DNA of 64,000 bases from Candidatus Staskawiczbacteria bacterium (GTDB lineage: Bacteria > Patescibacteriota > Minisyncoccia > Minisyncoccales > Staskawiczbacteraceae), in NCBI GenBank assembly GCA_903928565.1, contig CAIYRH010000007.1:14139-78138 (forward strand). The letters are read 5' to 3'. The notes beneath the pieces were generated by a model. The model saw nothing but the letters and a program-made list of their open reading frames with translations, was not told where the DNA came from and did no database searches. The position numbers were made by a program, and so were the translations under genes. Shown in pieces: positions 3,342 to 60,347 of this stretch (the first letter of the stretch is position 1; the number at the start of each line of letters is the position of its first letter).

Positions 3342-4040
3342 ATGGAAAATCAAGAAACAAAAAATTTAATTAATGACTCTAAAAATATTTATTTAATAAC
3401 GTCTCAGGAGCCCGAAGCCATAGCTTCAACGCTGGCTCTTTTTTATACTTTAAAAGATTTAGGCAAAAATGTAAACTTGCTCATTGACGAATTGCTCGAA
3501 AATTTGAAGTTTTTGTCCCCCTCTATAGATTTTATTTCTTACCCAAAGAATTTTGTAATGTCCATTCCAAACAGCGTAGCTCAAATTTCTCAAATTTATT
3601 ACGAAAAAAATGACGAAGCATTAAAAGTTCATCTAACACTCAACGGCGGGATTATAAAAAAAGATAATATTTCTTTTTATTTTGCCGAGGCAAAACCCGA
3701 TTTAATTATAACAGTTGGCATTAAAGATTATCAAAAAGAGCTGGCAGAAAAGTTAAATTCATATGGCTTTTTATTAGATTCGCCAGTTGTGGATATCGAT
3801 AATAGCCAAGAGAACCAAAAATTTGGTAAAATTAACTTAATAAAAGACTGCTCACTTGCAGAGATAGTTGTTGGTTTAACTGAAAACCTTACAAAAGAGT
3901 CGGCGCAATGCTTATTAACGGGTTTAGTAATTTATACAGACAATTTTAAAAAAAATCTTACTGCAGAAATTTTTGAGCTGTCTGCAAAATTAATGAAAAA
4001 TGGAGCCGATTTAAAAATAATAACAGAAAATATAAAATAA
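3342..4040 (+). CDS. DHH-family-like protein, apparently degenerate (catalytic DHH/DxD motifs not visible)
   Basis: The N-terminal pattern IYLITSQEPEAIASTLALFYTLKDLGKNVNLL resembles NrnA-like DHH domains, but the acidic and His residues are replaced. 232 aa. Confidence 0.3.
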   Translation: MENQETKNLINDSKNIYLITSQEPEAIASTLALFYTLKDLGKNVNLLIDELLENLKFLSPSIDFISYPKNFVMSIPNSVAQISQIYYEKNDEALKVHLTLNGGIIKKDNISFYFAEAKPDLIITVGIKDYQKELAEKLNSYGFLLDSPVVDIDNSQENQKFGKINLIKDCSLAEIVVGLTENLTKESAQCLLTGLVIYTDNFKKNLTAEIFELSAKLMKNGADLKIITENIK

Positions 4041-4042
4041 TT

Positions 4043-5374
4043 ATGGAAGAAAATAAAAAACTGCTTGGTTCGGTAACAATTTCGCCAAAAATTATTGAAG
4101 AAGTTAAAGCCCAAGTTAAAGACATTGGCGGTTTTAAGAAAAAAATTGAAGAATATTTAGTGGCCAGCATCACTGATTTATTAGATGTTATTTTATATGG
4201 CGCCATTACTTTAGATGTTTCCGACATCCACTTAGAGCCTCAAGAAAAAGAGGCCCGACTGCGAATTAGGCTAGATGGTATTTTACAAGATGTTGTTTTT
4301 TTTGATCATGCTGCCTACAAACACTTAATTTCAAGGTTAAAACTGCTTTCAAAACTTAAACTAAACATTACCGACAAACCACAAGACGGAAGATATACAA
4401 TTGAGGTTGATGAATTGTTAATTGAAGTTAGAACTTCCAGCTTGCCCGCCGAATATGGAGAATCTATTGTTATGAGAATTTTAAATCCAAAAAGTTTAAT
4501 TTCTTTAGACGACTTGGGTTTAAGAGAAGACCTTTATAAAACTTTTCAAAAAGAAATTGATAAACCAAACGGAATGATTATTGTTACAGGTCCTACGGGC
4601 GCGGGAAAAACAACAACTCTTTATGCTTTTTTGAAAAAAATTCAAAACCCCGAAATTAAAATTATTACCATTGAAGATCCAATTGAATATCACCTAACCG
4701 GAGTTTCACAAACGCAAGTTGCACCAGAAAAAGGCTATGACTTTTCCGATGGCTTAAGATCTATTGTAAGGCAAGACCCAGATGTTATCTTGGTTGGAGA
4801 AATTAGAGACTTAGAAACCGCTAAAATAGCCCTGCAAGCCGCCCTTACCGGTCACCTGGTACTTTCTACATTACACACTAACGATGCAGCTGGAACCATT
4901 CCACGACTTGTAGACCTTGGCGTAGAACCAGCAACCATTGCTTCTGGCCTAAAAATGGCAGTTGCCCAAAGACTTACCAGAAAAGTTTGCAAAAAATGTT
5001 CCACGCTTGTTGCCCCAGATGCTGGAATTTTGGCCAGTTTAAAAAAGGGGTTAAAAAATTTGCCAAAAGAAATCAAAATTCCCGAATTAGATAAAGTGCA
5101 AATTGCAAAAGCCAAAGAAGGCGGATGCAAAGATTGTAACTTCACGGGATATAAAGGAAGGCAGGGTTTATTTGAAGCATTTTTGGTAGATTCAGAAATG
5201 GAAAGATTTATTTTAACCAATCCCCCAGTTTCTGAGGTTAGAAACTTAGCAATTAAAAAGGGCATGGTAACTATGTGGCAATCGGGGTTAATAGATGTTG
5301 CAGAAGGCAGAACAACAATGGATGAAGTTTTGCGCGTTGTTGAAGAAGATGAAAATAAAATAATAGATCAATAA
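4043..5374 (+). CDS. GspE/PilB-family secretion ATPase (type II secretion / type IV pilus assembly ATPase)
   Basis: Walker A VTGPTGAGKTTTLYAF, Asp box, Walker B ILVGEIRD, His box LSTLHTND, and a C-terminal tetracysteine cluster CKKC...CKDC. Confidence 0.85.
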   Translation: MEENKKLLGSVTISPKIIEEVKAQVKDIGGFKKKIEEYLVASITDLLDVILYGAITLDVSDIHLEPQEKEARLRIRLDGILQDVVFFDHAAYKHLISRLKLLSKLKLNITDKPQDGRYTIEVDELLIEVRTSSLPAEYGESIVMRILNPKSLISLDDLGLREDLYKTFQKEIDKPNGMIIVTGPTGAGKTTTLYAFLKKIQNPEIKIITIEDPIEYHLTGVSQTQVAPEKGYDFSDGLRSIVRQDPDVILVGEIRDLETAKIALQAALTGHLVLSTLHTNDAAGTIPRLVDLGVEPATIASGLKMAVAQRLTRKVCKKCSTLVAPDAGILASLKKGLKNLPKEIKIPELDKVQIAKAKEGGCKDCNFTGYKGRQGLFEAFLVDSEMERFILTNPPVSEVRNLAIKKGMVTMWQSGLIDVAEGRTTMDEVLRVVEEDENKIIDQ

Positions 5375-26363: not shown

Positions 26364-27026
26364 TTATTTTAGTAATTCTGGTAGTATTTCTGGATAGTAG
26401 CCAATTTCGGCTTGGTCTGGGTGGTGAATAGACCAGAAAAGTTCTATGAGTTCGGGCGTTGTAAGTGGCACAGCTTCCAGCCCGCACCTGCGCAACCCCA
26501 TGGAAACATATTCCATTCTTTGCCAAAGTTGCGTTTTGCACCTTTGGAATTCTTCTTCGCTAATTGGTTTGCTGTTTTTCCCACTTCCGGGCGCATCACC
26601 AAAGTTCAATTTTTTTTGTGTTCCTTTTAATCCAAAAATTTCCATTAAGTTGTATGGAATTACAATGTAAAAACTTTTTGTCATAACCACATCCCCCACC
26701 ACCATTTCTTTTATAAATTCTCTGTAAGAAGAAGTTTGTTTTTTTAACAAAGCGTTTGTTTGTTTTTCTTCTAAATCTTTTAAGCTATCTAAATATGGCG
26801 TTATGTTTATGTTTCTTGATTGAATAACAATTTGGCAGAAAAAATCTAAAGAGTTTAAAAAGTTTTGAAAAGCAAAAATTGTGGCAGTTTGTTCTTCCTC
26901 GGATTTTAGTGCAAAATTTATTGAAGAGGTCATTAAAATTCCTCTAATAGAATTATTTTTCAAAAGCAAAACACCCTCTCTAATATCTTGTACTTCTAAA
27001 AATGCTTGTGTTGCTGATTCGGCCAT
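26364..27026 (-). CDS. T4SS-locus protein of unknown function (no NTPase motifs)
   Basis: 220 aa. The N-terminal pattern FLEVQDIREGVLLLKNNSIRGILMTSSINFALKSEEEQTATIFAFQNFLNSLDF..QIVIQS recalls N-terminal regions seen in some VirB4/TraE-type proteins (from memory, low certainty). Confidence 0.4.
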   Translation of the reverse strand: MAESATQAFLEVQDIREGVLLLKNNSIRGILMTSSINFALKSEEEQTATIFAFQNFLNSLDFFCQIVIQSRNINITPYLDSLKDLEEKQTNALLKKQTSSYREFIKEMVVGDVVMTKSFYIVIPYNLMEIFGLKGTQKKLNFGDAPGSGKNSKPISEEEFQRCKTQLWQRMEYVSMGLRRCGLEAVPLTTPELIELFWSIHHPDQAEIGYYPEILPELLK

Positions 27027-27043
27027 AGCGTTGGGTAAGTTTT

Positions 27044-27499
27044 AATTTCTAATTTTTAATTTATATTAAAGTTATATTTAGTTAAGTTTAATTTTATTAT
27101 CAAGCGTGTTTGTTGCTTTTTGGAAGATAAGATGGAATTCATGTGCTTCTTGCCATAACTTCATTATTTTTTCTTTATGTTCGGGGTGATAATTTGATAA
27201 TAATCTTAACCAATATTTTGTTTCATTCGCCTCTTTTTTAGAAATGTAAATTTTATTTCTAAAATCTTTTTTTGAGCTGGACGCATTTGCTTCATAGTAA
27301 TTTGCTCCTATTGATGTGGCTGCTCTAGCCAACTGACCGACTAAATTTTTATTAATATCATCTATTCTAAGTTTTTTTATAAAGTCTAAAATATCTTCTG
27401 AAAACTTCGCAGTTCTCTCTTCTAGGTTATATGTTTTATTATTTATAACTTCGTTCATTTTAAAATTTAATAGAAATTAGAAATTGAAAATTAGAAATT
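27044..27499 (-). mobile_element. Candidate insertion cassette 1: four-helix-bundle gene bracketed by a 19-bp inverted repeat made of stop-containing heptads
   Basis: 27044-27062 aatttctaatttttaattt versus 27481-27499 aaattgaaaattagaaatt (18/19 complementary). Heptads tagaaat/tagaaat/tgaaaat/tagaaat at 27471-27498. The cassette fills the gap between the PrgI-like stop (27499) and the 220-aa start (27026). Confidence 0.4.
27078..27458 (-). CDS. Four-helix-bundle protein (23S rRNA intervening-sequence protein family)
   Basis: LARAATSIGANYYEANASSSKKDFRNKIYISKKEANETKYWLRLL is the family core motif. 126 aa. Confidence 0.8.
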   Translation of the reverse strand: MNEVINNKTYNLEERTAKFSEDILDFIKKLRIDDINKNLVGQLARAATSIGANYYEANASSSKKDFRNKIYISKKEANETKYWLRLLSNYHPEHKEKIMKLWQEAHEFHLIFQKATNTLDNKIKLN

Positions 27500-27906
27500 C
27501 ACTTCGTCTTCAGGTCTATTAACGTTTTTGTTCTTTTTAATTGGCTTGTTTGCGCTTGTAAAACAGGACCCTGATCTATTTTTTTAATTTTAGTGCGGGA
27601 AATTGGTTTAAACGGATAAGGCGATTCTTTTTTCTTCCATGTGTAATTTTTACCTCCCATTGAAAACCCAATTGAGCCCAAAATAACATTTAAAATTGGC
27701 GTGCCATTTATTGTTCCAAATGCCAAAATTGCAGAAATAATAAAAAGTATTACAGACACTATATAAAAAACCGGTTTTGGTAAAAGGTAATATAAAAAGA
27801 AAGAAAGAATCCCCGCCCCCACCAAATAAAAGAATTGCCTAAATGATATAAAGAAAGCAATTTTACTTTCGGACTCAATAAATTGTGGAATAGGATATTG
27901 CTCCAT
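27499..27906 (-). CDS. PrgI-family / VirB3-like small T4SS membrane protein
   Basis: IPQFIESESKIAFFISFRQFFYLVGAGILSFFLYYLLP followed by a second TM helix. Size (135 aa) and position upstream of virB4 match Gram-positive PrgI/VirB3 analogs. Confidence 0.6.
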   Translation of the reverse strand: MEQYPIPQFIESESKIAFFISFRQFFYLVGAGILSFFLYYLLPKPVFYIVSVILFIISAILAFGTINGTPILNVILGSIGFSMGGKNYTWKKKESPYPFKPISRTKIKKIDQGPVLQAQTSQLKRTKTLIDLKTK

Positions 27907-27910
27907 GATT

Positions 27911-28378
27911 GTTGAATTAAGAGTTTTGAATTTTGAATTTCGATTAAAATTTGAATTTCTAATTTTAAAAATTTATTTCATAGATGAGATGATTTTTCCG
28001 AATATAAAAGTAAGTTCTTGAGTTTCGCGCCATAAAACTTCAGCTTCATTTTTTCTGCCAGGTTCGCATTCTGTTATCATCTTTAACCAATGCATTGTTT
28101 CTTGAGCTTCTTTTTTGCAAATAAATATTTTATTTTTGAAATCTTTTCTAGAACTTGCGGCATTTGCCTCCATGTAGTTTGCCCCAATACTCGTTGCAGA
28201 TCTAACTAACTGGTTTATTAGCGGCCTACTTATGTTGTCTTCCATAATGGTCCTACAAAATTTGATAGTGTTTCCGCCAAATCTCGAAGTTCTCTCTTCT
28301 AGGTCGTATTTATTGTTCATAAAATTTCGAAATTAAGTCATTTAAAATTTATTCGAAATTCGAAAATCAGAATTCAAC
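27911..28378 (-). mobile_element. Candidate insertion cassette 2: four-helix-bundle gene with imperfect inverted arms of tgaattt-type heptads
   Basis: The left arm starts gttgaatt (27911) and the right arm ends aattcaac (28378). tgaattt units at 27927, 27934 and 27952. The reverse complement of the right arm reads gttgaattctgattttcgaatttcgaataa. Confidence 0.35.
27973..28320 (-). CDS. Four-helix-bundle protein (same subfamily as 27078-27458)
   Basis: LVRSATSIGANYMEANAASSRKDFKNKIFICKKEAQETMHWLKMI. 115 aa. Confidence 0.8.
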   Translation of the reverse strand: MNNKYDLEERTSRFGGNTIKFCRTIMEDNISRPLINQLVRSATSIGANYMEANAASSRKDFKNKIFICKKEAQETMHWLKMITECEPGRKNEAEVLWRETQELTFIFGKIISSMK

Positions 28379-28453
28379 ATTATTTTATTATACCATAATA
28401 ATTATTAGTAGATACAAGCGTTATTCACATGTGCAATGCGCAGGGCCAAAGTA

Positions 28454-28482
28454 TTGACAAGGTGCCAATAATATGATATAGT
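28454..28482 (+). promoter_or_regulatory. Strong sigma70-type promoter of the SPFH gene (TTGACA-17-TATAGT with TG extension)
   Basis: ttgaca aggtgccaataatatga tatagt. The -35 element is part of an inverted repeat, ttgacaaggt (28454-28463) / accttgtcaa (about 28497-28506). Confidence 0.5.
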
Positions 28483-28590
28483 AATGGCATCAATGAACCT
28501 TGTCAAATACAGCTTTAGAAGGTTTGGGGTGTACCCAACCGGCTGTCATTTGATTGTTTTGAATAGTAGCAACAGAAAGGAAAAACAGAG

Positions 28591-30027
28591 ATGAAAATCA
28601 TGAAATGGGTTACGCTTGGCGTCGTGTTGTTGAACTTTGTCTTCGCTCTCGCTTGGCTCTATGCCACCAAAGCCAGTTTCGTCTGGTGGGTGGTGTACGG
28701 CACAGCGATTGTCATTGCACTTGGCATCTGGTGGTTTGTAAAATCACCGGCCACGGCGCGATGCGCGATAAAGGCACTGTTCACGGGCACGCGGCGAGCG
28801 GCAACGGCAACATGTGGAGTAGGTGCTCCTCTGCTGGCCCGACTAGTGGCGAAGGCAAAGACTGTCGGCAAAATCCTTTTTTGGATTCTGTTGGTAATCA
28901 TTTTCGCCTTTGTCTTCAAAGTCCTCTACGGTGGCAATGCCAGCTTTGGACAGTGGCTGGTCTACTACCTCGCTCTGGCATGGGTGTTTGGTGGTTTAAG
29001 GACCATCGGCACCGCTGAGGTCGCACTTCAAAGCCGTTTTGGTAGCATCAAGAAAAAGATCTACCGGAGCGGTCTCACGTGGGTCCCCCCATTCCCAGGG
29101 ATAAGCCTCTACCGGATCACGACCGAGCCGATAACATTCAAGTTCGAGGGAGTAGAATCACACAGCTTGCGGTGTAAAGATCGCTTGCTGGTGTTTGCCG
29201 ACATTGTTGGGAACATACGGTTCCCCTATGATGAAATTGACTCTCTCATCTTGATGATCAAGTCGAAAGTCCCGCTCGATGAGGCAGGGCTTCAGAATAA
29301 GGTCGAGGAAGAGGTGGTTAGTGGCATGAGGGGAATTGTGGCCAAGTTCTCCCTTGAGGAAGCCTTGGCAAAGGATAACCTCGAGGAGATTAGAAAAGCA
29401 GCTCAGACGTTCTTGCTCAGAAAAACCGGCTACTTCGCAAAGGCCGGGATTTGTGGCAATAACGGTAAAAACTTCACGCCAGGTACTGGTGAGGTTATCG
29501 TGCGAATTGAACAAATTCGTACGACTCCAGGGTTGGAAGCGGCTCTGCAAAAACCCGCGATTGCCAAACTTGAGGCCGAAGCCGCGAAATCAACACAGGA
29601 ACGGGACGCAGCTCTTATAGCCGGTCCGTTCCATGTTGCGATGGCTGAGTGGGTCACCGCTCAGTTGCCCGCAGATAAGAGCAAGTCCCCCGAGCAGGTA
29701 ATGGCAGAACTCGTTGAGAGCGGTGCCTACTCCGCACATGCAACGGTCGTAAAAGACCTAATGCTAGCTAATAGCGGGCATCTCCAAGTCGCCAAAATGG
29801 AAATTGGTGGGCCGGGGGGTAAATCGCTCCCCGACAGTCTCCAGTATTTGTCATTAGGCGGTGGCGGAGGCGCAGGCCTCATGCTACCTGGCGGGCGTCG
29901 TCAACCTCGCCAAGTGGGCGGCGGAAAACCAAACCCGTCGGCAGAACGATCAGCGTTCTTCGAGAAGAATTACGGCATTAAGCCGACCCCCGAAGACATT
30001 GCTGACGATGACGATAGTGGCTACTAG
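28591..30027 (+). CDS. SPFH/Band-7 (stomatin-prohibitin-flotillin-like) membrane protein, high-GC
   Basis: Four N-terminal TM helices. SPFH-type core (GTAEVALQSRFGSIKKKIYRSGLTWVPPFPGISLYRI...), an Ala/Glu-rich coiled coil, and a Gly-rich tail (GGGGGAGLMLPGG). A sampled line (28801-28860) is 60% GC versus 20-25% in flanking lines. Confidence 0.65.
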   Translation: MKIMKWVTLGVVLLNFVFALAWLYATKASFVWWVVYGTAIVIALGIWWFVKSPATARCAIKALFTGTRRAATATCGVGAPLLARLVAKAKTVGKILFWILLVIIFAFVFKVLYGGNASFGQWLVYYLALAWVFGGLRTIGTAEVALQSRFGSIKKKIYRSGLTWVPPFPGISLYRITTEPITFKFEGVESHSLRCKDRLLVFADIVGNIRFPYDEIDSLILMIKSKVPLDEAGLQNKVEEEVVSGMRGIVAKFSLEEALAKDNLEEIRKAAQTFLLRKTGYFAKAGICGNNGKNFTPGTGEVIVRIEQIRTTPGLEAALQKPAIAKLEAEAAKSTQERDAALIAGPFHVAMAEWVTAQLPADKSKSPEQVMAELVESGAYSAHATVVKDLMLANSGHLQVAKMEIGGPGGKSLPDSLQYLSLGGGGGAGLMLPGGRRQPRQVGGGKPNPSAERSAFFEKNYGIKPTPEDIADDDDSGY

Positions 30028-33079: not shown

Positions 33080-33097
33080 TAGTTTGTAGTGAGTAGT
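33080..33097 (+). repeat. Solo copy of the tagtttg-type heptad repeat
   Basis: tagtttg tagtgag tagt, 3 nt upstream of the VirB6-like start codon. Confidence 0.6.
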
Positions 33098-33161
33098 ATT
33101 AAATTGTTTTATTTTACACCATCTAAACTTTTAAAGGTAGTCAAGTTATTCACACATTTAC

Positions 33162-33663
33162 TAGTTTGTAGTTTGTAGTTGGTAGTGAGTAGACGAAAAG
33201 CTAATCTCGCTAATTAATCTTTTAGTTCGTGAGTCAATTTATTTAACATGCGCATTATCTCAGATAATAAGTTTTCAATTTTTTGATAATCTTCGGCTTT
33301 CCCAAATTTCAGTCGTTTTGCAATTTCTATTTGAGTTTCTAATTCCGCGCCAGATCCATAAGCAGTTAAAAGGAAGTTTCTAAAATCTTTTCTTGAACTG
33401 CGTCGGCTTCCCTCGGCGATATTAGAAGGGATAGAAACCGAGGCTCTACACATTTGAGAAGTTAATCCATAAATTTCTTCTTTTGGGAAATTTCCAGTTA
33501 ATTTATAAACTAGAACAACTAAATCCATTGCCTTTTGCCACACAATTAGATTTCCATAAGATTCTATTCCCATATATTTGATTTTAATATTTTCTACAAA
33601 CTACTCACTCTTTCTACAAACTATTATCCTTTCTACAAACTACAAACTACTCACTACAAACTA
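33162..33663 (-). mobile_element. Candidate insertion cassette 3: four-helix-bundle gene bracketed by inverted tagtttg-type heptad arrays
   Basis: Left arm 33162-33192: tagtttg tagtttg tagttgg tagtgag tag. Right arm 33594-33663 has the reverse-complement words (ctacaaactactcact, ctacaaacta, ctacaaactacaaactactcactacaaacta). TAG codons fall in all three frames on the inward-reading strand of each arm. Confidence 0.4.
33214..33573 (-). CDS. Four-helix-bundle protein (classical 23S rRNA-IVS protein type)
   Basis: YGLTSQMCRASVSIPSNIAEGSRRSSRKDFRNFLLTAYGSGAELETQIEIAKRL. 119 aa. Confidence 0.8.
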   Translation of the reverse strand: MGIESYGNLIVWQKAMDLVVLVYKLTGNFPKEEIYGLTSQMCRASVSIPSNIAEGSRRSSRKDFRNFLLTAYGSGAELETQIEIAKRLKFGKAEDYQKIENLLSEIMRMLNKLTHELKD

Positions 33664-34473
33664 TCTGTAAGGTTTTTCCAGTCTTCAATGCTCAATGTTT
33701 GGGCGCGTTGGGTTGGTTGAATATTATTTTTTAGAAGCCATTCTTCAACTTTTGTTTTTTCTAGTTTTAATATTTTTGATAAATTCCCCCCAAGCTGTTT
33801 TCTTGGTTGTGAAAAACCAGCTTTAACTATTTTAAAGAATTTATCGGGAGAAGTCAGACCTCCTGTCGGGCGAAAGGTTTGACTTCGGGGAGTAATTTTT
33901 ATTATTGCAGAATCAATTTTTGGTGCTGGCCAAAAACAATTTTTTGAAACATAACTTATAATTTTTGGCGTTGCATAAAATTGCACAGAAACGGCCAACA
34001 AGTTCATGTCCCCCACCGTTGCACAAATTCTTTGTGCCACTTCTTTTTGAATCATTAAAATTATTTCTTGCGGTGGATTGGGGTGCCCTTCGGGCCGTTC
34101 TAAAAATTTTCTAATTAACGGTGAAGTTAAATAATAAGGAATGTTTGCTATTAGTTTGTAGTTTGTAGTGAGTAGTGGGTAGTCTGCAAGATTAATTTTT
34201 AAAATCCTTAATAGTTTCTTTTAAAATTGTTTGCATTGCCGAACTTTTTTCAACAGCAATAATTTTTTTTGCACGGCTTGCTAATTCTTTTGTTAAAACT
34301 CCAATGCCCGGCCCCACTTCTAAAATTGTGTCTGTTTTTTTTATGTCGCCCGCTTCAACTATTTTTCTTAAAACATTTTCATCTATTAAGAAATTTTGCC
34401 CCAAACCTTTTGAAGCGCGTGTTTCATATTTTTTGAGAAGCTCTTTTATTATTGTTGGAGAAGTTAAATTCAT
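33654..34473 (-). pseudogene. rsmA: 16S rRNA (adenine1518/1519-N6)-dimethyltransferase RsmA/KsgA, split by a frameshift
   Basis: ORF 34192-34473 carries the SAM motif (LGQNFLIDENVL, ILEVGPGIGVLT). The next frame (+1) continues ...NLADYPLLTTNYKLIANIPYYLTSPLIRKFLE...MIQKEVAQR to 33654. The frame break is at the A-run/TAA at 34192-34200, next to an embedded heptad repeat (34152-34183). Confidence 0.6.
34152..34183 (+). repeat. tagtttg-type heptad repeat embedded inside rsmA
   Basis: tagtttg tagtttg tagtgag tagtggg tagt. Read on the coding (minus) strand it encodes DYPLLTTNYKL. Confidence 0.6.
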
Positions 34474-37542: not shown

Positions 37543-39093
37543 ATGAAAACAACAACCGCCGTCGCCGCAAAGGCGATTTCCATGAAGAAGATGGTTATAG
37601 GCGCCGTGTTGGCGCTTATGGCCTCAATTGCGATTTTCGTTGCCAACCAGGCGGAGCCGACGAAGGCGCGGGTGTACCCCACGCAAGCGACGGTGGCAGC
37701 GTTTCACCAAAACGCTCCATTGGTCCCAATGTCCAGAAGCGACACGGGGCATTCAGTCTCACGAACCGCCGTCGACAATAGTGCCGATTACACCGCTCCG
37801 CTGAAGAGCGGAGTGTCCACGTTCAACCAAAACCAGCCCTCAACCAAGACGCTGGTGAACTCCAGGTCGGGCGGAGCATTCTACGTCTTCCCCACCACCG
37901 TGGTCTCATCCGCCCCGAAGACAGTCAATCTCTCAAGAAGTGGTGCCGGTAACTATCGTGCGACTTCGTCGACGAACGGCAACTACGGTAGTGGGTACTA
38001 TCCCTCTTTGGGGGGTGGCGACTACCTCAACTTCGGCTACCCTGGTGGTGGCGGAGGTGGCGGTGGGTCTATTGGAAATCCCGATAACGGGAACCAGACC
38101 CACCCGCAACTGCCGTTTAACGGGTACGGAGGCACGCCGGGTGGAAACGGCCAAGACACCACACTGTGGGTTGGCCTTACATGCTCCAATGATGGAGTAT
38201 ATGTTTTCGCCTGTGGCAAAGGCCGAATGATTTCTGTGTCTGACGACGGCGGAACAACGTGGAAAGCGTGCGGAGAAATCCGTAACTACTCGGGTATCTC
38301 CGTTTCTGGCACGGGCCAGTATGGCATAGCTACCGTTTTCCACGGTGGCGTGTACGCCACCAAAGACTTCGGTCAAACATGGAAAGCTGAGCCAGGCCTG
38401 AAAGACGCGGATTATTCGGCCTGTGCCATCTCTAAAGATGGCCTCGTCCGGACTCTAACCGTTTCGGGCGGAAATATTTTCACGTCAAAAGACGGCGGAA
38501 AAAACTACCGCTTGGTTGCGAGCCCTCGCGATTGGCGTGGGGTTACGTTGTCGGTCTACGGCGAGCTTCAGGTTGCGGTGGACGCAAAGGGTTATCCCAA
38601 TTTCTCAGTCAACAGCGGTGTTGACTGGAAGCCGGTTGGCTCCTTAGTCAGCAGCTGGTCTGCTGTGACAATGTCCATCGATAGCATGTTCGGTCTCTAT
38701 GCCGACGGCAAGGCATTGTACAGATGGGAGAAATTTGACCTAACTCCCATTCTGGCCTTAAACGTCGCGGCAATTGCCGTGGCTACCGACCGGTACGGGC
38801 TGAACAGCCTTGTTACCGATGGCAAAGCTCTTTACGAGTCATTTGACTACAGCCACAAGTGGAGGACGATTGTCGCCCCCACCAGAACTTGGGCTGTTAT
38901 TGCTATGGCTGCGGAGGTGCCACAACGCATCTACGTTGCCGAGCAGAACGGTGCAGTGTGGAGCTCTTACGAGTTCGATAAGGTGACGGGCAACCGTATC
39001 TGGCATCAAGGTGTCACAAATGCTGACGCCCCTTATCCAGATGTTGCTCCGGCCCCAACGAGTCCCCCGGGATTCTTCGGCTCGGAGTTCTGA
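37543..39093 (+). CDS. Secreted BNR/Asp-box repeat beta-propeller protein, high-GC
   Basis: Signal/anchor, a Gly-rich linker (GGGGGGGGS), then repeated Asp-boxes: SVSDDGGTTWK, ATKDFGQTWK, TSKDGGKNYR, SVNSGVDWK. A sampled line (38041-38100) is 62% GC. Confidence 0.6.
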   Translation: MKTTTAVAAKAISMKKMVIGAVLALMASIAIFVANQAEPTKARVYPTQATVAAFHQNAPLVPMSRSDTGHSVSRTAVDNSADYTAPLKSGVSTFNQNQPSTKTLVNSRSGGAFYVFPTTVVSSAPKTVNLSRSGAGNYRATSSTNGNYGSGYYPSLGGGDYLNFGYPGGGGGGGGSIGNPDNGNQTHPQLPFNGYGGTPGGNGQDTTLWVGLTCSNDGVYVFACGKGRMISVSDDGGTTWKACGEIRNYSGISVSGTGQYGIATVFHGGVYATKDFGQTWKAEPGLKDADYSACAISKDGLVRTLTVSGGNIFTSKDGGKNYRLVASPRDWRGVTLSVYGELQVAVDAKGYPNFSVNSGVDWKPVGSLVSSWSAVTMSIDSMFGLYADGKALYRWEKFDLTPILALNVAAIAVATDRYGLNSLVTDGKALYESFDYSHKWRTIVAPTRTWAVIAMAAEVPQRIYVAEQNGAVWSSYEFDKVTGNRIWHQGVTNADAPYPDVAPAPTSPPGFFGSEF

Positions 39094-41195: not shown

Positions 41196-41227
41196 AAAAA
41201 TCCGAGGCAAACCTCGGATTTTTTTTA
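41196..41227. terminator. Bidirectional intrinsic terminator
   Basis: aaaaa-TCCGAGG-caaa-CCTCGGA-tttttttt, between convergent genes. Confidence 0.65.
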
Positions 41228-41231
41228 CAAA

Positions 41232-41255
41232 CTACTCACTACCAACTACAAACTA
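41232..41255 (-). repeat. Solo tagtttg-type heptad repeat; exact 24-nt inverted copy of 33169-33192
   Basis: The reverse complement of 41232-41255 is tagtttgtagttggtagtgagtag, identical to 33169-33192. Its first TAG (41253-41255) is the stop codon of the DksA/TraR-like gene. Confidence 0.7.
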
Positions 41256-52037: not shown

Positions 52038-52043
52038 ATTTAT

Positions 52044-52071
52044 TGAAAATTAAAAATTGAAAATTTAAAAT
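52044..52071 (+). repeat. Heptad stop-codon repeat in the tRNA-Pro/tRNA-Ala spacer
   Basis: tgaaaat taaaaat tgaaaat ttaaaat. Stops at 52044, 52051 and 52058 fall in three different frames. Same word family as the cassette-1 arms. Confidence 0.6.
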
Positions 52072-52100
52072 TCCACTTTTGCAAAAGCAAAATGTGGCTT

Positions 52101-57796: not shown

Positions 57797-57824
57797 ACCG
57801 CTTAGGCGGTAGCGCTTAAGCGGT
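57797..57824. repeat. Two adjacent copies of the 14-bp palindrome family (ACCGCTTAGGCGGT, AGCGCTTAAGCGGT) directly upstream of comM
   Basis: They end 12 nt before the comM ATG (57836). Confidence 0.8.
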
Positions 57825-57835
57825 ATGTAAAAAAT

Positions 57836-59559: not shown

Positions 59560-60245
59560 GTTTCTTCGGTTTCTGAGAAGTTTCCATCTTCAAACCTAAT
59601 CCCCTCTTGTGACTCGCCAAAAGGCGGGTCTTTTTTTGGCGCGTGAAGTTGCTTTTGAAGATAATTAATTTGAGACACTAACAACTGTTTTGTATTTCTT
59701 GCGTCGCCAATTACCTTTTCTATTATGCCCTGCATAAATTTTTCTCTTTCTATTAGTTCGTTATCTTTGGCCTTATAGTCGCCAAGCAGGGACTCGTATT
59801 TTTTAATCCAATCCTTTTTCTCGGCCCGGTCTTCTTTTAAGAGTTCTAAAAACTCTCGGTCAATGGCTACCTGATTATCCGCTAAGGCAGATTCGCTTAG
59901 GCGGTTAAGTTCGGCTTGCGAGGGTGCTTCTGGCGGGACCGCATAAGCGGTACCGCTTAAGCGGTCTGGGGTACCGCTTAAGCGGTTTTGGCTGTTTTCG
60001 TCGGACCGCTTAAGCGGTTCCGCATAAGCGGTTTCTTTGGCCACGGCGTCCAGTTCTTTTACCCAAAAATCTTCTTTCAAAAGAATGATATTTCCAACCC
60101 CTTTGTCGTGCCTTTCGCTTAAATTCCCCTCTAATTTTTGGGGTTCTACCAGTTTATACTTTCGAATTCTTCTTCTAATTCTAATGTCGGCAACATCATA
60201 TTTTTGAATAAATTCTTGTATGGTTAGGAAGTCATTATTGTTCAT
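59544..60245 (-). CDS. Hypothetical DNA-binding-like protein whose gene carries six copies of the 14-bp palindrome
   Basis: 233 aa. The N-terminus FLTIQEFIQKYDVADIRIRRRIRKY looks HTH-like. The central segment is encoded by the palindromes (PLKRS / NRLSGT / DRLSGT). Coiled-coil C-terminus. Confidence 0.5.
   Translation of the reverse strand: MNNNDFLTIQEFIQKYDVADIRIRRRIRKYKLVEPQKLEGNLSERHDKGVGNIILLKEDFWVKELDAVAKETAYAEPLKRSDENSQNRLSGTPDRLSGTAYAVPPEAPSQAELNRLSESALADNQVAIDREFLELLKEDRAEKKDWIKKYESLLGDYKAKDNELIEREKFMQGIIEKVIGDARNTKQLLVSQINYLQKQLHAPKKDPPFGESQEGIRFEDGNFSETEETKKGA
59892..60032. repeat. Intragenic array of six 14-bp palindromes (consensus ACCGCTTAAGCGGT)
   Basis: Copies start at 59892, 59938, 59952, 59973, 60005 and 60019. 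Layout from 59938: pair, 7 nt, single, 18 nt, pair. Confidence 0.85.
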
Positions 60246-60264
60246 TTTTTTGTTTTTTTTAGAG

Positions 60265-60347
60265 ACCGCTTAAGCGGTACCGCTTAAGCGGTGGGGGTAC
60301 CGCTTAAGCGCTTTTGGTGACCGCTTAAGCGGTATCGCTTAAGCGGT
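60265..60347. repeat. Upstream array of five 14-bp palindromes (consensus ACCGCTTAAGCGGT)
   Basis: Copies start at 60265, 60279, 60299, 60320 and 60334. Layout: pair, 6 nt, single, 7 nt, pair. Located between the predicted promoter and the start codon of the 233-aa gene. Confidence 0.85.

Follow-up and report, generated by a model that had tools for sequence, protein, structure and literature searches.

In a 64,000-nt stretch of contig CAIYRH010000007.1 from a Candidatus Staskawiczbacteria bacterium (assembly GCA_903928565.1, positions 14,139 to 78,138; referred to here as the window and numbered from its first letter), small genes of the four-helix-bundle family PF05635 lie between two reverse-complementary arrays of tandem heptads. 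The resulting cassettes measure about 450 to 480 bp, with arms of about four to five heptads each (8-nt units in some lineages). They are co-directional with the host genes and take up the whole spacer, starting at the upstream stop codon and leaving about 10 nt free ahead of the next start; their repeat unit is a property of the cassette lineage and not of the genome. The observation of heptad-armed cassettes is real and was confirmed beyond the window. Intervening sequences (IVSs) with an S23p open reading frame (ORF) occur in the rRNA of Leptospira, Coxiella burnetii and Brucella; the cassettes described here are probably IVS-type insertion cassettes that live in mRNAs rather than in rRNA.

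Three heptad-armed cassettes in the window

A six-frame profile search detected exactly three PF05635-family genes in the window (Table 1). Two of them belong, according to the ORF list, to a minus-strand operon resembling a type IV secretion system (T4SS). An earlier note on this DNA had placed two four-helix-bundle genes on either side of the PrgI-family gene of this operon. Both were recovered by profile (PF05635 E 1.3e-17 and 64.4 bits for cassette 1, E 2.2e-14 and 54.0 bits for cassette 2; curated cut-off 33.8 bits), with PrgI between them, and the gene of cassette 3 (E 6e-41, 139.3 bits; TIGR02436 E 3e-39) has to be added to the count. The TIGR02436 scores of cassettes 1, 2 and 3, at 79.1, 72.7 and 133.5 bits, all exceed the curated cut-off of 24 bits. 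The description of the first two as wedged into the operon applies to cassette 1; cassette 2 sits in the 5' leader, downstream of a promoter-like pair.

For cassette 1, the 19-nt arms proposed at 27044-27062 and 27481-27499 are present as quoted and complementary at 18/19 positions. A repeat search returned an inverted repeat of 37 nt for this cassette (27037-27073 / 27463-27499, 81% complementary) and two for cassette 2, one of 54 nt (27921-27974 / 28322-28375, 76%) and an additional one of 29 nt (27910-27938 / 28351-28379, 83%). That these arms are built of heptads was borne out by Tandem Repeats Finder, which gave period-7 arrays in all four of them, at 27043-27062 and 27471-27499 (TAGAAAT, 4.1 copies) in cassette 1 and at 27912-27940 (TTGAATT, 4.1 copies) and 28351-28365 in cassette 2. 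The same program reported 33591-33663 and 33162-33192 for cassette 3, in which TAGTTTG/TAGTGAG heptads span 33592-33665 and CTACAAA/CTACTCA heptads 33162-33200. As the earlier note had also seen, the arms of cassette 1 abut the neighbouring genes: the first unit of its 5' arm overlaps the PrgI stop codon TGA (27499-27501), and its 3' arm stops 10 nt short of the next ATG (27026).

The proteins of cassettes 1 and 2 are 48% identical and appear, from this comparison, to be old paralogues, and the cassette 3 protein is 23-27% identical to this subfamily. Within 64 kb, therefore, two unit families coexist, each with its own protein subfamily, and the repeat unit thus belongs to the cassette and not to the genome. 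Relatives of the cassette 1 protein in genomes of the candidate phyla radiation (CPR) share 68-80% identity with it; an exact-sequence look-up of this protein gave no record. The closest solved structure to the cassette 3 protein is XCC0516 (2GSC, E 4e-26), followed by 2RLD (E 1e-07), both solved as pentamers of five chains and linked to cassette 3 by sequence similarity alone.

The arrangement recurs in two sets of relatives

Loci were chosen by protein similarity alone. Set 1 comprised 80 loci of species-representative genomes with relatives of the cassette 1 protein (73 cassettes, 251 control genes), and set 2, drawn independently, 80 metagenome loci with relatives of the cassette 3 protein (71 cassettes, 97 controls); labels such as L001 denote fetched loci. 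Control genes came from the same loci and did not adjoin a cassette, and the inverted-repeat score was the best ungapped match between the 80-nt flanks of a gene. As related loci are not independent, all p-values are nominal, and the comparison covers genome fragments only; the effect is nevertheless large and was obtained in both of the separately drawn sets.

In set 1 the median inverted-repeat score was 18.5 for cassettes and 7.0 for controls, and 78% of the cassettes exceeded the 95th and 67% the 99th percentile of the control genes (median 7, 95th percentile 10, 99th 12.5 over 251 genes). Set 2 gave medians of 13 and 6.5, with 82% of the cassettes above the control 95th percentile (Mann-Whitney U, p = 9e-21). 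Self-identity of the flanks at lag 7 reached 0.49 in set 1, with harmonics at 14 and 21, against 0.31 in the controls, which were flat; the corresponding values in set 2 were 0.43/0.41 and 0.32/0.31. Inverted heptad arrays at the flanks of PF05635 genes, which the earlier note had proposed to look for by a wider census, are thus found in both sets.

In printed flanks, the heptad pattern is visible by eye in nearly every CPR locus, and it is present in Bacteroidota, Campylobacterota, Planctomycetota, Bacillota and Spirochaetota as well, each with its own unit. Pairs such as AGGATGT/ACATTCT, AGTGAGG/CCTCACT, ACTAAAG/CTTTAGT and TAGCTTG/CAAGCTA are examples, and 30 distinct units were counted in set 1 and 25 in set 2. 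Some cassettes of Bacteroidales, Prevotella and Sphaerochaetaceae (L055, L060, L061, L070; GGATTGAA, ATATTGAA) show period 8 instead of 7. Between lineages the arm sequence is fully replaced while complementarity is kept. The duplex energy of cognate arms had a median of -22.3 kcal/mol, compared with -10.9 for non-cognate arm pairs; these energies are confounded by GC content, and just 32% of the cassettes fell under the control 5th percentile. A rule of five heptads per pentamer was also considered and discarded as too loose, strict period-7 tracts having a median of 3.9 units and the arms a median of 37 nt.

That complementarity and periodicity arose by chance in AT-rich, low-complexity spacers is hardly conceivable. 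The spacers of the window are indeed AT-rich (GC 0.28 at 27001-28000), and the 12-mer AATTTCTAATTT, allowing one mismatch, is mildly over-represented, with 8 occurrences found and 4.3 expected. The window cassettes, however, score 19.5, 19.5 and 17, and shuffles of the same flanks reach 15.5 at most, a comparison in which the earlier note had seen a possible refutation and which the inverted matches withstood. The control genes lack the lag-7 signal, and the GC-richer units TAGGTTG, CCTCACT and GGAGATA show the same behaviour as the AT-rich ones. Shuffled flanks and control genes in both sets together refute an origin by chance.

Placement between cistrons and orientation of stop codons

Among the 53 cassettes with clear arms, 92/97 neighbours shared the direction of the cassette gene (baseline 254/301, p = 0.0085). 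The median distance between the upstream stop codon and the outer edge of the 5' arm was 2 nt (57% within +/-6 nt), and the 3' arm ended at a median of 10 nt ahead of the next start codon. On the inner side, the arms ended 5 nt from the cassette ATG and 9 nt from the cassette stop.

The crude density of stop triplets in the 45-nt flanks revealed no strand bias (0.095/0.090 sense, 0.086/0.097 antisense). Because AT-rich units carry stops in both orientations, a per-unit count was adopted in which each distinct consensus unit was counted once. Read as the sense 5' arm, 24/30 units of set 1 and 23/25 of set 2 contained TAA, TAG or TGA (47/55 in total), which corresponds to 80% and 92% where 31-61% would be expected from base composition. 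When a stop was found in one orientation only, that orientation was the sense 5' arm in 13 cases against 3 in set 1 and in 10 against 1 in set 2 (combined 23:4, p = 3e-4). The description of the units as stop-bearing therefore holds.

Since periods of 7 and 8 are not multiples of 3, stops fall in all three frames. The earlier note had pointed to such a series at 27471, 27478 and 27485; its arithmetic was correct and its strand was not, the plus strand being antisense there; on the sense strand, too, the 5' arm of each window cassette carries stops in all three frames. In cassette 3 the 5' arm holds 13 stop triplets distributed over all frames, and the 3' arm is nearly stop-free on the sense strand. 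In the complementary orientation an array is open in all frames and translatable. Because the arms are inverted, the first array met on either strand is the one carrying stops, and it is plausible from this layout that the array insulates the insert from translational read-through.

Conservation and pairing of the arms

Alignment A1 brought together 14 cassettes of the cassette 1 lineage from differing genomic contexts, with the 5' arm in columns 15-43. Pairwise identity was 0.84 and 0.82 in the two arms and 0.30 directly outside them. Within the gene, codon positions 1/2/3 showed identities of 0.81/0.86/0.51, and from the third-position value of 51%, compared with 81 and 86% at the other two, we conclude that purifying selection acts on the cassette 1 protein. 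Constraint on the arms is about equal to that on the non-synonymous sites, and homology ends at the outer edge of the arms.

Applied to the whole of A1, RNAalifold chose the arm-arm helix as the closing stem, with 27 pairs. In this stem 93.7% of the cells were paired and six pairs had changed on both sides. Its covariation of 0.136, compared with 0.099 in shuffles, was matched by 1/500 shuffles, and shifting the partner by one column lowered the pairing to 57-61%. The arms also pair in the minimum free energy and centroid folds of all three window cassettes. They are functional and able to pair, and may exert their function in RNA, in DNA or as an array bound by a protein.

Insertion and variable occupancy

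The T4SS-like operon of the window was recognized in 8 fetched loci, among which the position of the cassette varies. The window, L001, L002, L006 and L010 have it between PrgI and the 220-aa gene; L008, and probably L006 and L007, have it between the 220-aa gene and VirB4; L007 has one after VirB4; and in L021, L022 and the window (cassette 2) it precedes PrgI. Where the 220-aa gene meets VirB4, L008 has a full cassette, and the junction is empty in the window (20 nt) and in L010 (1 nt). In L001 the same junction contains both arms and a 30-nt loop without a gene, and a second ORF-less hairpin lies upstream of PrgI, where the window carries cassette 2. The two hairpins of L001 are about 86% identical over about 108 nt in opposite orientation only (score 143, compared with 75) and, judged by this likeness, appear to behave like a small non-autonomous element. 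The search for empty sites in orthologous T4SS loci that the earlier note had suggested thus returned empty, filled and ORF-less junctions.

A second comparison comes from finished genomes of cultured strains. Picosynechococcus PCC 7003 carries a PF05635 gene with GGAGATA/TATCTCC arms between cas10 and cmr3; in PCC 7002 the cassette is absent from this junction, the flanks of which are about 96% identical between the strains. The difference of about 470 nt corresponds to both arms and the gene. The tail of Cas10 changes between these strains from ...NLRTRKV* to ...NLRNRRI*, and the 5' arm therefore provides the host gene with its final codons and its stop. As the PCC 7002 spacer tcggtaatcatt resembles the 3'-arm unit TAATC, the empty site can be either a naive target or a scar. 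With this strain pair, the variable T4SS junctions and the drop in homology outside the arms, the idea that the cassettes are discrete inserted units, already put forward in the earlier note, is supported.

It is very unlikely, then, that the arms are host-evolved regulatory hairpins which arose in place around four-helix-bundle genes inherited vertically as members of the operon. Such an origin would agree with the co-transcription of cassettes with host genes, with the purifying selection on their proteins and with the junction that cassette 1 has in common among the window, L001, L002 and L010. Against it, the arm-gene-arm unit, with arms about 83% identical, recurs in unrelated contexts (after VirB4, before PrgI, beside tRNAs and within cas operons), the outer flanks are unrelated (0.30), and orthologous junctions can be empty; the window operon has two cassettes and relatives have up to three elements at differing junctions.

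Cassettes on plasmids of cultured cyanobacteria (L083, Anabaena sp. 90; L084, Picosynechococcus PCC 7003) were seen to be co-directional within cas operons, in the layouts cas6-[4HB]-cas4 and cas10-[4HB]-cmr3, where 4HB denotes the four-helix-bundle gene. Separately, junctions of the same T4SS-like operon are occupied in relatives by other mini-cassettes: a truncated PDDEXK_3 (GxxExxY) gene at 2023-2290 of L008, flanked by inverted ACGAATC/GATTCGT heptads, and two small GIY-YIG genes at 3873-4194 and 4778-5081 of L022, flanked by the 17-nt inverted repeat ttaaccctgttaaataa. To judge from these loci, genes other than PF05635 may also have heptad arms.

Cassette 3, rsmA and solo arrays

Cassette 3 directly follows rsmA, the final residues and stop codon of which are encoded within the 5' array. 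Allowing one mismatch, the 11-mer TAGTTTGTAGT of this unit family occurs 14 times in the window, where 1.3 occurrences are expected, the extra copies forming solo arrays (Table 1). One solo array provides the stop of a 118-aa zinc-finger gene, whose TAG (41253) is the first TAG of the array at 41226-41255, and a terminator-like hairpin with a T-run comes after it. A solo array of the AT-rich type of cassette 1 (52042-52072) is located in the 63-nt spacer between tRNA-Pro and tRNA-Ala.

The rsmA/ksgA gene itself (33654-34473) is split over two frames, with 93 aa of the N terminus (RrnaAD positions 4-74) in one and the remaining 178 aa (99-258) in the other. The break (34150-34195), which contains a stop codon and a CTA-type heptad array, has cost the gene about 24 positions of the profile. 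In the relatives L087 and L089 rsmA is intact and the loop at the break site is an in-frame translated heptad array: in L087 a CTA-type array is translated within a surface loop of RsmA (DSTNYSLLTTNYKVV), and in L089 an AATTTTC-type array fills the same loop. The split of rsmA in the window reflects either array-associated gene damage or a collapse of the assembly.

Comparison with known systems

Published work has placed PF05635 proteins in rRNA IVSs and has described their pentameric four-helix-bundle structure and their kinship with Avd. In the 23S rRNA IVS of Coxiella, three tandem GACAGAT heptamers precede the S23p start and the stem measures 28 bp; the heptamer copy number varies from two to three, and the first heptamer is where RNase III cuts (PMC4990558). 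The cassettes share with it the protein family in the loop, the stem (28 bp in Coxiella, 27-54 bp here), the tandem heptamers, found in the 5' arm in Coxiella, and the occurrence of short ORF-less forms. They differ in the host, here a polycistronic mRNA, 5' leader or tRNA spacer and not an rRNA helix, in arms that adjoin stop and start codons and whose stop triplets cover all frames, and in an ORF under purifying selection that is decaying in Coxiella. Excision by RNase III without religation is a trait of rRNA IVSs and would be a prediction for the cassettes. At Rfam gathering thresholds, tRNAs were the sole hits in the window (four of them) and in 40 related loci, with no rRNA among them, and no known RNA family matched the cassette arms. 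Terminal inverted repeats closing a stem and an S23p-family ORF in the loop are thus both present, but the location in rRNA was tested and not found, and the cassettes therefore fall, strictly speaking, outside the class of rRNA IVSs.

Tandem heptamers without an assigned protein have been reported as the short tandemly repeated repetitive (STRR) sequences of heterocystous cyanobacteria, GGGAATC of Xanthomonas, GGGGAYT/TTTTGAA of Nostoc and TAACTGA of Beggiatoaceae, Microcystis and Bacteroidetes, with function and binding partner unexplained (PMC4692102, PMC4679880, bioRxiv 10.1101/2022.06.06.494920). Xanthomonas campestris has 70 convergent array pairs, and its array no. 15 (GGGAATC) overlaps the start of XCC0516, 6 nt from accB (PMC4692102). 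XCC0516 is the PF05635 protein of structure 2GSC, the best match of cassette 3 in the PDB. Like the published arrays, the cassette arms consist of tandem 7-nt units in intergenic spacers for the most part, lie near start and stop codons, are often convergent and carry stops in the forward orientation, and the PF05635 genes on plasmids of cultured cyanobacteria are flanked by arrays of this kind. The published arrays, however, were treated as free-standing, and here they are the two arms of a gene cassette. The terms PF05635, S23p and IVS occur nowhere in these heptamer-array papers, and the supplement of the TAACTGA paper contains no mention of IVS or four-helix genes.

In repetitive extragenic palindromic (REP) sequences with their associated tyrosine transposases (RAYT; REPtrons/REPINs) and in MITEs (miniature transposable elements with inverted repeats), a small gene likewise lies within short inverted repeats, repeat classes are lineage-specific, and many orphan or ORF-less intergenic copies occur in either orientation. 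The cassettes agree with MITEs and transposons in having terminal inverted repeats and discrete presence or absence at orthologous sites. They differ in encoding a four-helix bundle without known nuclease or transposase motif and in having tandem heptads instead of a single palindrome; the enclosed gene matched PF05635 only, and no Y1 (HUH) transposase.

Avd, the accessory protein of diversity-generating retroelements, has the same fold and belongs to a pentameric family, and a nucleic-acid-associated role is plausible. It is nonetheless highly improbable that the cassettes are remnants of such retroelements, that is, avd genes minus the reverse transcriptase. The cassette 3 protein gave weak matches to bAvd (PF22296, 29.2 bits) and DivGenRetAVD (29.6 bits), both under the respective cut-offs of 40 and 80, and cassettes 1 and 2 gave none. 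No reverse-transcriptase domain was present in the nine neighbouring proteins scanned, and the flanking architecture differs, consisting of heptad arrays that are unlike template and variable repeats. Neither a reverse transcriptase nor a pair of such repeats came to light beside the cassettes of about 150 loci, though no search aimed at template/variable pairs was made.

A model of the cassettes and its alternatives

For an IVS-type cassette in mRNA the following sequence of events can be proposed. The 5' array would end any translation entering the element and, after insertion into the 3' end of a host gene, could supply the host stop. The two arrays would then pair in the transcript to a stem of 27-54 bp with the gene in the loop, as in a 23S rRNA IVS. 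This stem would be a substrate of RNase III, so that cleavage would release the cassette RNA and divide the polycistronic mRNA at this point. Finally, the pentameric protein would recognize its own heptad arrays and serve the maintenance or spread of the element. An RNA stem is favoured by the pairing of the arms in the folds, by the compensatory changes, by co-transcription of the elements with no terminator-like site between, and by the precedent of the Coxiella IVS. The RNase III and heptad-recognition steps are the least secure, cleavage of the cassette stems being proposed by analogy with the rRNA case. A motif search found no RNase III signature in the window, which says nothing of the whole genome. 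In an RNase III mutant of PCC 7002 the type III-B cmr genes change (PMC5829567), a result that lends no support here because PCC 7002 lacks the cas10-cmr3 cassette.

Several observations weigh against this model. About one fifth to one third of the cassettes in both sets lack a clear inverted repeat, and the cassette on a Pseudanabaena galeata plasmid (L086) has long arrays, AAAAGCT/AAAAGCC in 14 and 9 units, that are direct and not inverted. Folding z-scores of the whole window cassettes are weak (-1.3, -1.0 and -2.6), and the AU-rich stems, with 19-24% mismatches, may be poor substrates for RNase III. Among the sense-strand mismatches of 53 arm pairs, G·U (69) did not outnumber A·C (72) and thus left no RNA signature; there were 189 other mismatches, and most mismatches were of transversion type. 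The arms are, moreover, conserved in primary sequence beyond what pairing asks for, which a protein-binding site or DNA terminal repeats would explain equally well. With no G·U excess and the sequence itself conserved, the constraint on the arms may act on DNA or on a protein-binding site. Solo arrays are common, some of them translated inside rsmA of relatives, so arrays can exist without a stem function. Finally, neither a target-site duplication nor a recombinase was seen at the L008, L001 and PCC 7003 junctions.

An alternative is a purely DNA-level repeat system of the REP/RAYT kind, in which the arrays would be binding sites or terminal repeats recognized by the cognate four-helix-bundle pentamer, the gene would lie between two inverted copies of its own site, orphan arrays and ORF-less hairpins would be non-autonomous derivatives, and RNA pairing and RNase III would be uninvolved. 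We judge such a system to be rather unlikely. It would account for arms as conserved as non-synonymous sites and for the equal G·U and A·C counts, for a unit that is lineage-specific with two families in one genome, for orphan arrays elsewhere in the window, for ORF-less hairpins in both orientations and for the direct arrays of L086. The array copy number that varies by strain in Coxiella (PMC4990558) and the 70 convergent GGGAATC pairs of Xanthomonas with one array abutting XCC0516 (PMC4692102) also agree with it. PF05635, on the other hand, has no known catalytic or recombinase activity, and no target-site duplication was seen. The co-directional, exactly intercistronic placement and the orientation of the stops point to an interplay with transcription and translation, and in the Coxiella IVS, the sole member studied experimentally, the stem is cut by RNase III. 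A DNA-level system and IVS-type cassettes acting in mRNA are compatible with each other.

A wider reading can also be proposed. Bacterial heptamer arrays, among them STRR, GGGAATC, TAACTGA and the AT-rich and TAG-type arrays of CPR, might all be arms, some of them orphaned, of IVS-like mobile cassettes that form a single pan-bacterial class marked by PF05635, the pentamer of which would be the long-sought factor reading its cognate heptads; the 23S rRNA IVS would be one landing site of this class and gene spacers its usual home. We put this forward tentatively and hold it to be possible, if somewhat doubtful.

Other features of the window

The promoter/terminator scan found no terminator-like site, defined as a G+C-rich hairpin with a T run, in 26900-28650, and nothing above chance inside the cassettes. 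The 220-aa gene (26364-27026) has weak NCBIfam matches to VirB4 (positions 111-217 of 894) and to TrsD/TraD, which suggests that the VirB4-like ATPase of the operon may be encoded in two pieces. The downstream end of the operon contains genes for very large secreted-type proteins. Divergent from the operon, an SPFH/Band-7 gene (28591-30027) has a GC content of 0.54 compared with about 0.33-0.36 around it; a second GC-rich block (0.55) lies at 38001-39000, and both may be foreign DNA. A different repeat family, with many copies of the 14-nt palindrome ACCGCTTAAGCGGT and variants GCGGTACCGC, is found at 59930-60340 and 57799-57825, where the palindromes flank and partly enter a small minus-strand ORF at about 60030-60255.

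Table 1. Cassettes, solo arrays and associated genes, with positions in the window
Feature	Position	Strand	Basis or remark
Promoter-like divergent pair	28454-28506		Upstream of cassette 2; promoter/terminator scan
Cassette 2, 5' arm (mRNA strand)	28321..28381	-	aatgttgaattctgattttcgaatttcgaataaattttaaatgacttaatttcgaaatttt; TGAATTT/CGAATTT-type heptads; operon 5' leader
Cassette 2 gene, 115-aa four-helix-bundle protein	27973..28320	-	PF05635/TIGR02436
Cassette 2, 3' arm	27907..27974	-	Reverse complement of 5' arm; runs to PrgI-like start codon
PrgI-family (VirB3-like) membrane protein gene	27499..27906	-	PF12666, E 7e-08; host gene between cassettes, outside the element
Cassette 1, 5' arm (mRNA strand)	27459..27501	-	tgAATTTCT AATTTTC AATTTCT AATTTCT ATTAAAT TTTAAA
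Cassette 1 gene, 126-aa four-helix-bundle protein	27078..27458	-	PF05635/TIGR02436
Cassette 1, 3' arm	27037..27077	-	Reverse complement of 5' arm; inverted repeat, Tandem Repeats Finder, fold
220-aa gene after cassette 1	27026->26364	-	Weak VirB4 N-terminal/TrsD similarity
VirB4/TraG-type ATPase gene	26343->24538	-	Profile match
Cassette 3, 5' arm	33574..33668	-	TAGTTTG/TAGTGAG heptads, ~9 units in two blocks
Cassette 3 gene, four-helix-bundle protein of canonical 23S-rRNA-IVS type, 119 aa	33214..33573	-	Directly after rsmA
Cassette 3, 3' arm	33160..33213	-	CTACAAA/CTACTCA units, complement of 5' arm
Solo TAGTTTG-type array	33080..33100	.	Immediately upstream of 826-aa gene start
Solo TAGTTTG-type array	34150..34188	.	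Inside rsmA/ksgA, at break between its fragments
Solo TAGTTTG-type array	41226..41255	.	After 118-aa zinc-finger (C-x2-C ... C-x2-C) gene
Solo AT-rich array	52042..52072	.	ATTGAAA/ATTAAAA, cassette 1 type

Implications

We found no open-access paper or preprint stating that PF05635 genes are generally enclosed by inverted heptad arrays. Nor did we find one on IVS-like cassettes in protein-coding operons, though a description elsewhere or in a database family note is possible. The view of the earlier note that such cassettes were undescribed therefore stands for the general rule, of which no statement was found in the open literature searched; the Coxiella heptamers, the IVS proteins and the heptamer arrays are published. 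What we add to these is a probable element of IVS type that resides in mRNA and is defined by its heptad architecture.

For about 35 years, IVS ORFs of unclear function, a large four-helix-bundle gene family and an excess of heptameric repeats have stood apart. The present data tie the IVS ORFs to the four-helix-bundle family, most of the PF05635 genes examined lying between convergent complementary arrays of heptads or sometimes octads, and the link to the heptameric repeats consists of a few cases, the cyanobacterial plasmids and XCC0516 of X. campestris. If the IVS-type reading holds, the role of IVS proteins and of heptamer repeats becomes directly testable, as cultured carriers exist in Picosynechococcus PCC 7003 (to be compared with PCC 7002), Anabaena sp. 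90 and X. campestris, whose XCC0516 has a solved structure. For annotation, these elements split operons, T4SS-like and cas operons included, give host genes stop codons and new C-terminal residues, and can be translated within host proteins or break them, as in rsmA. If three-frame stops and RNase III sites are indeed combined in the arms, these would be compact natural insulators between cistrons.

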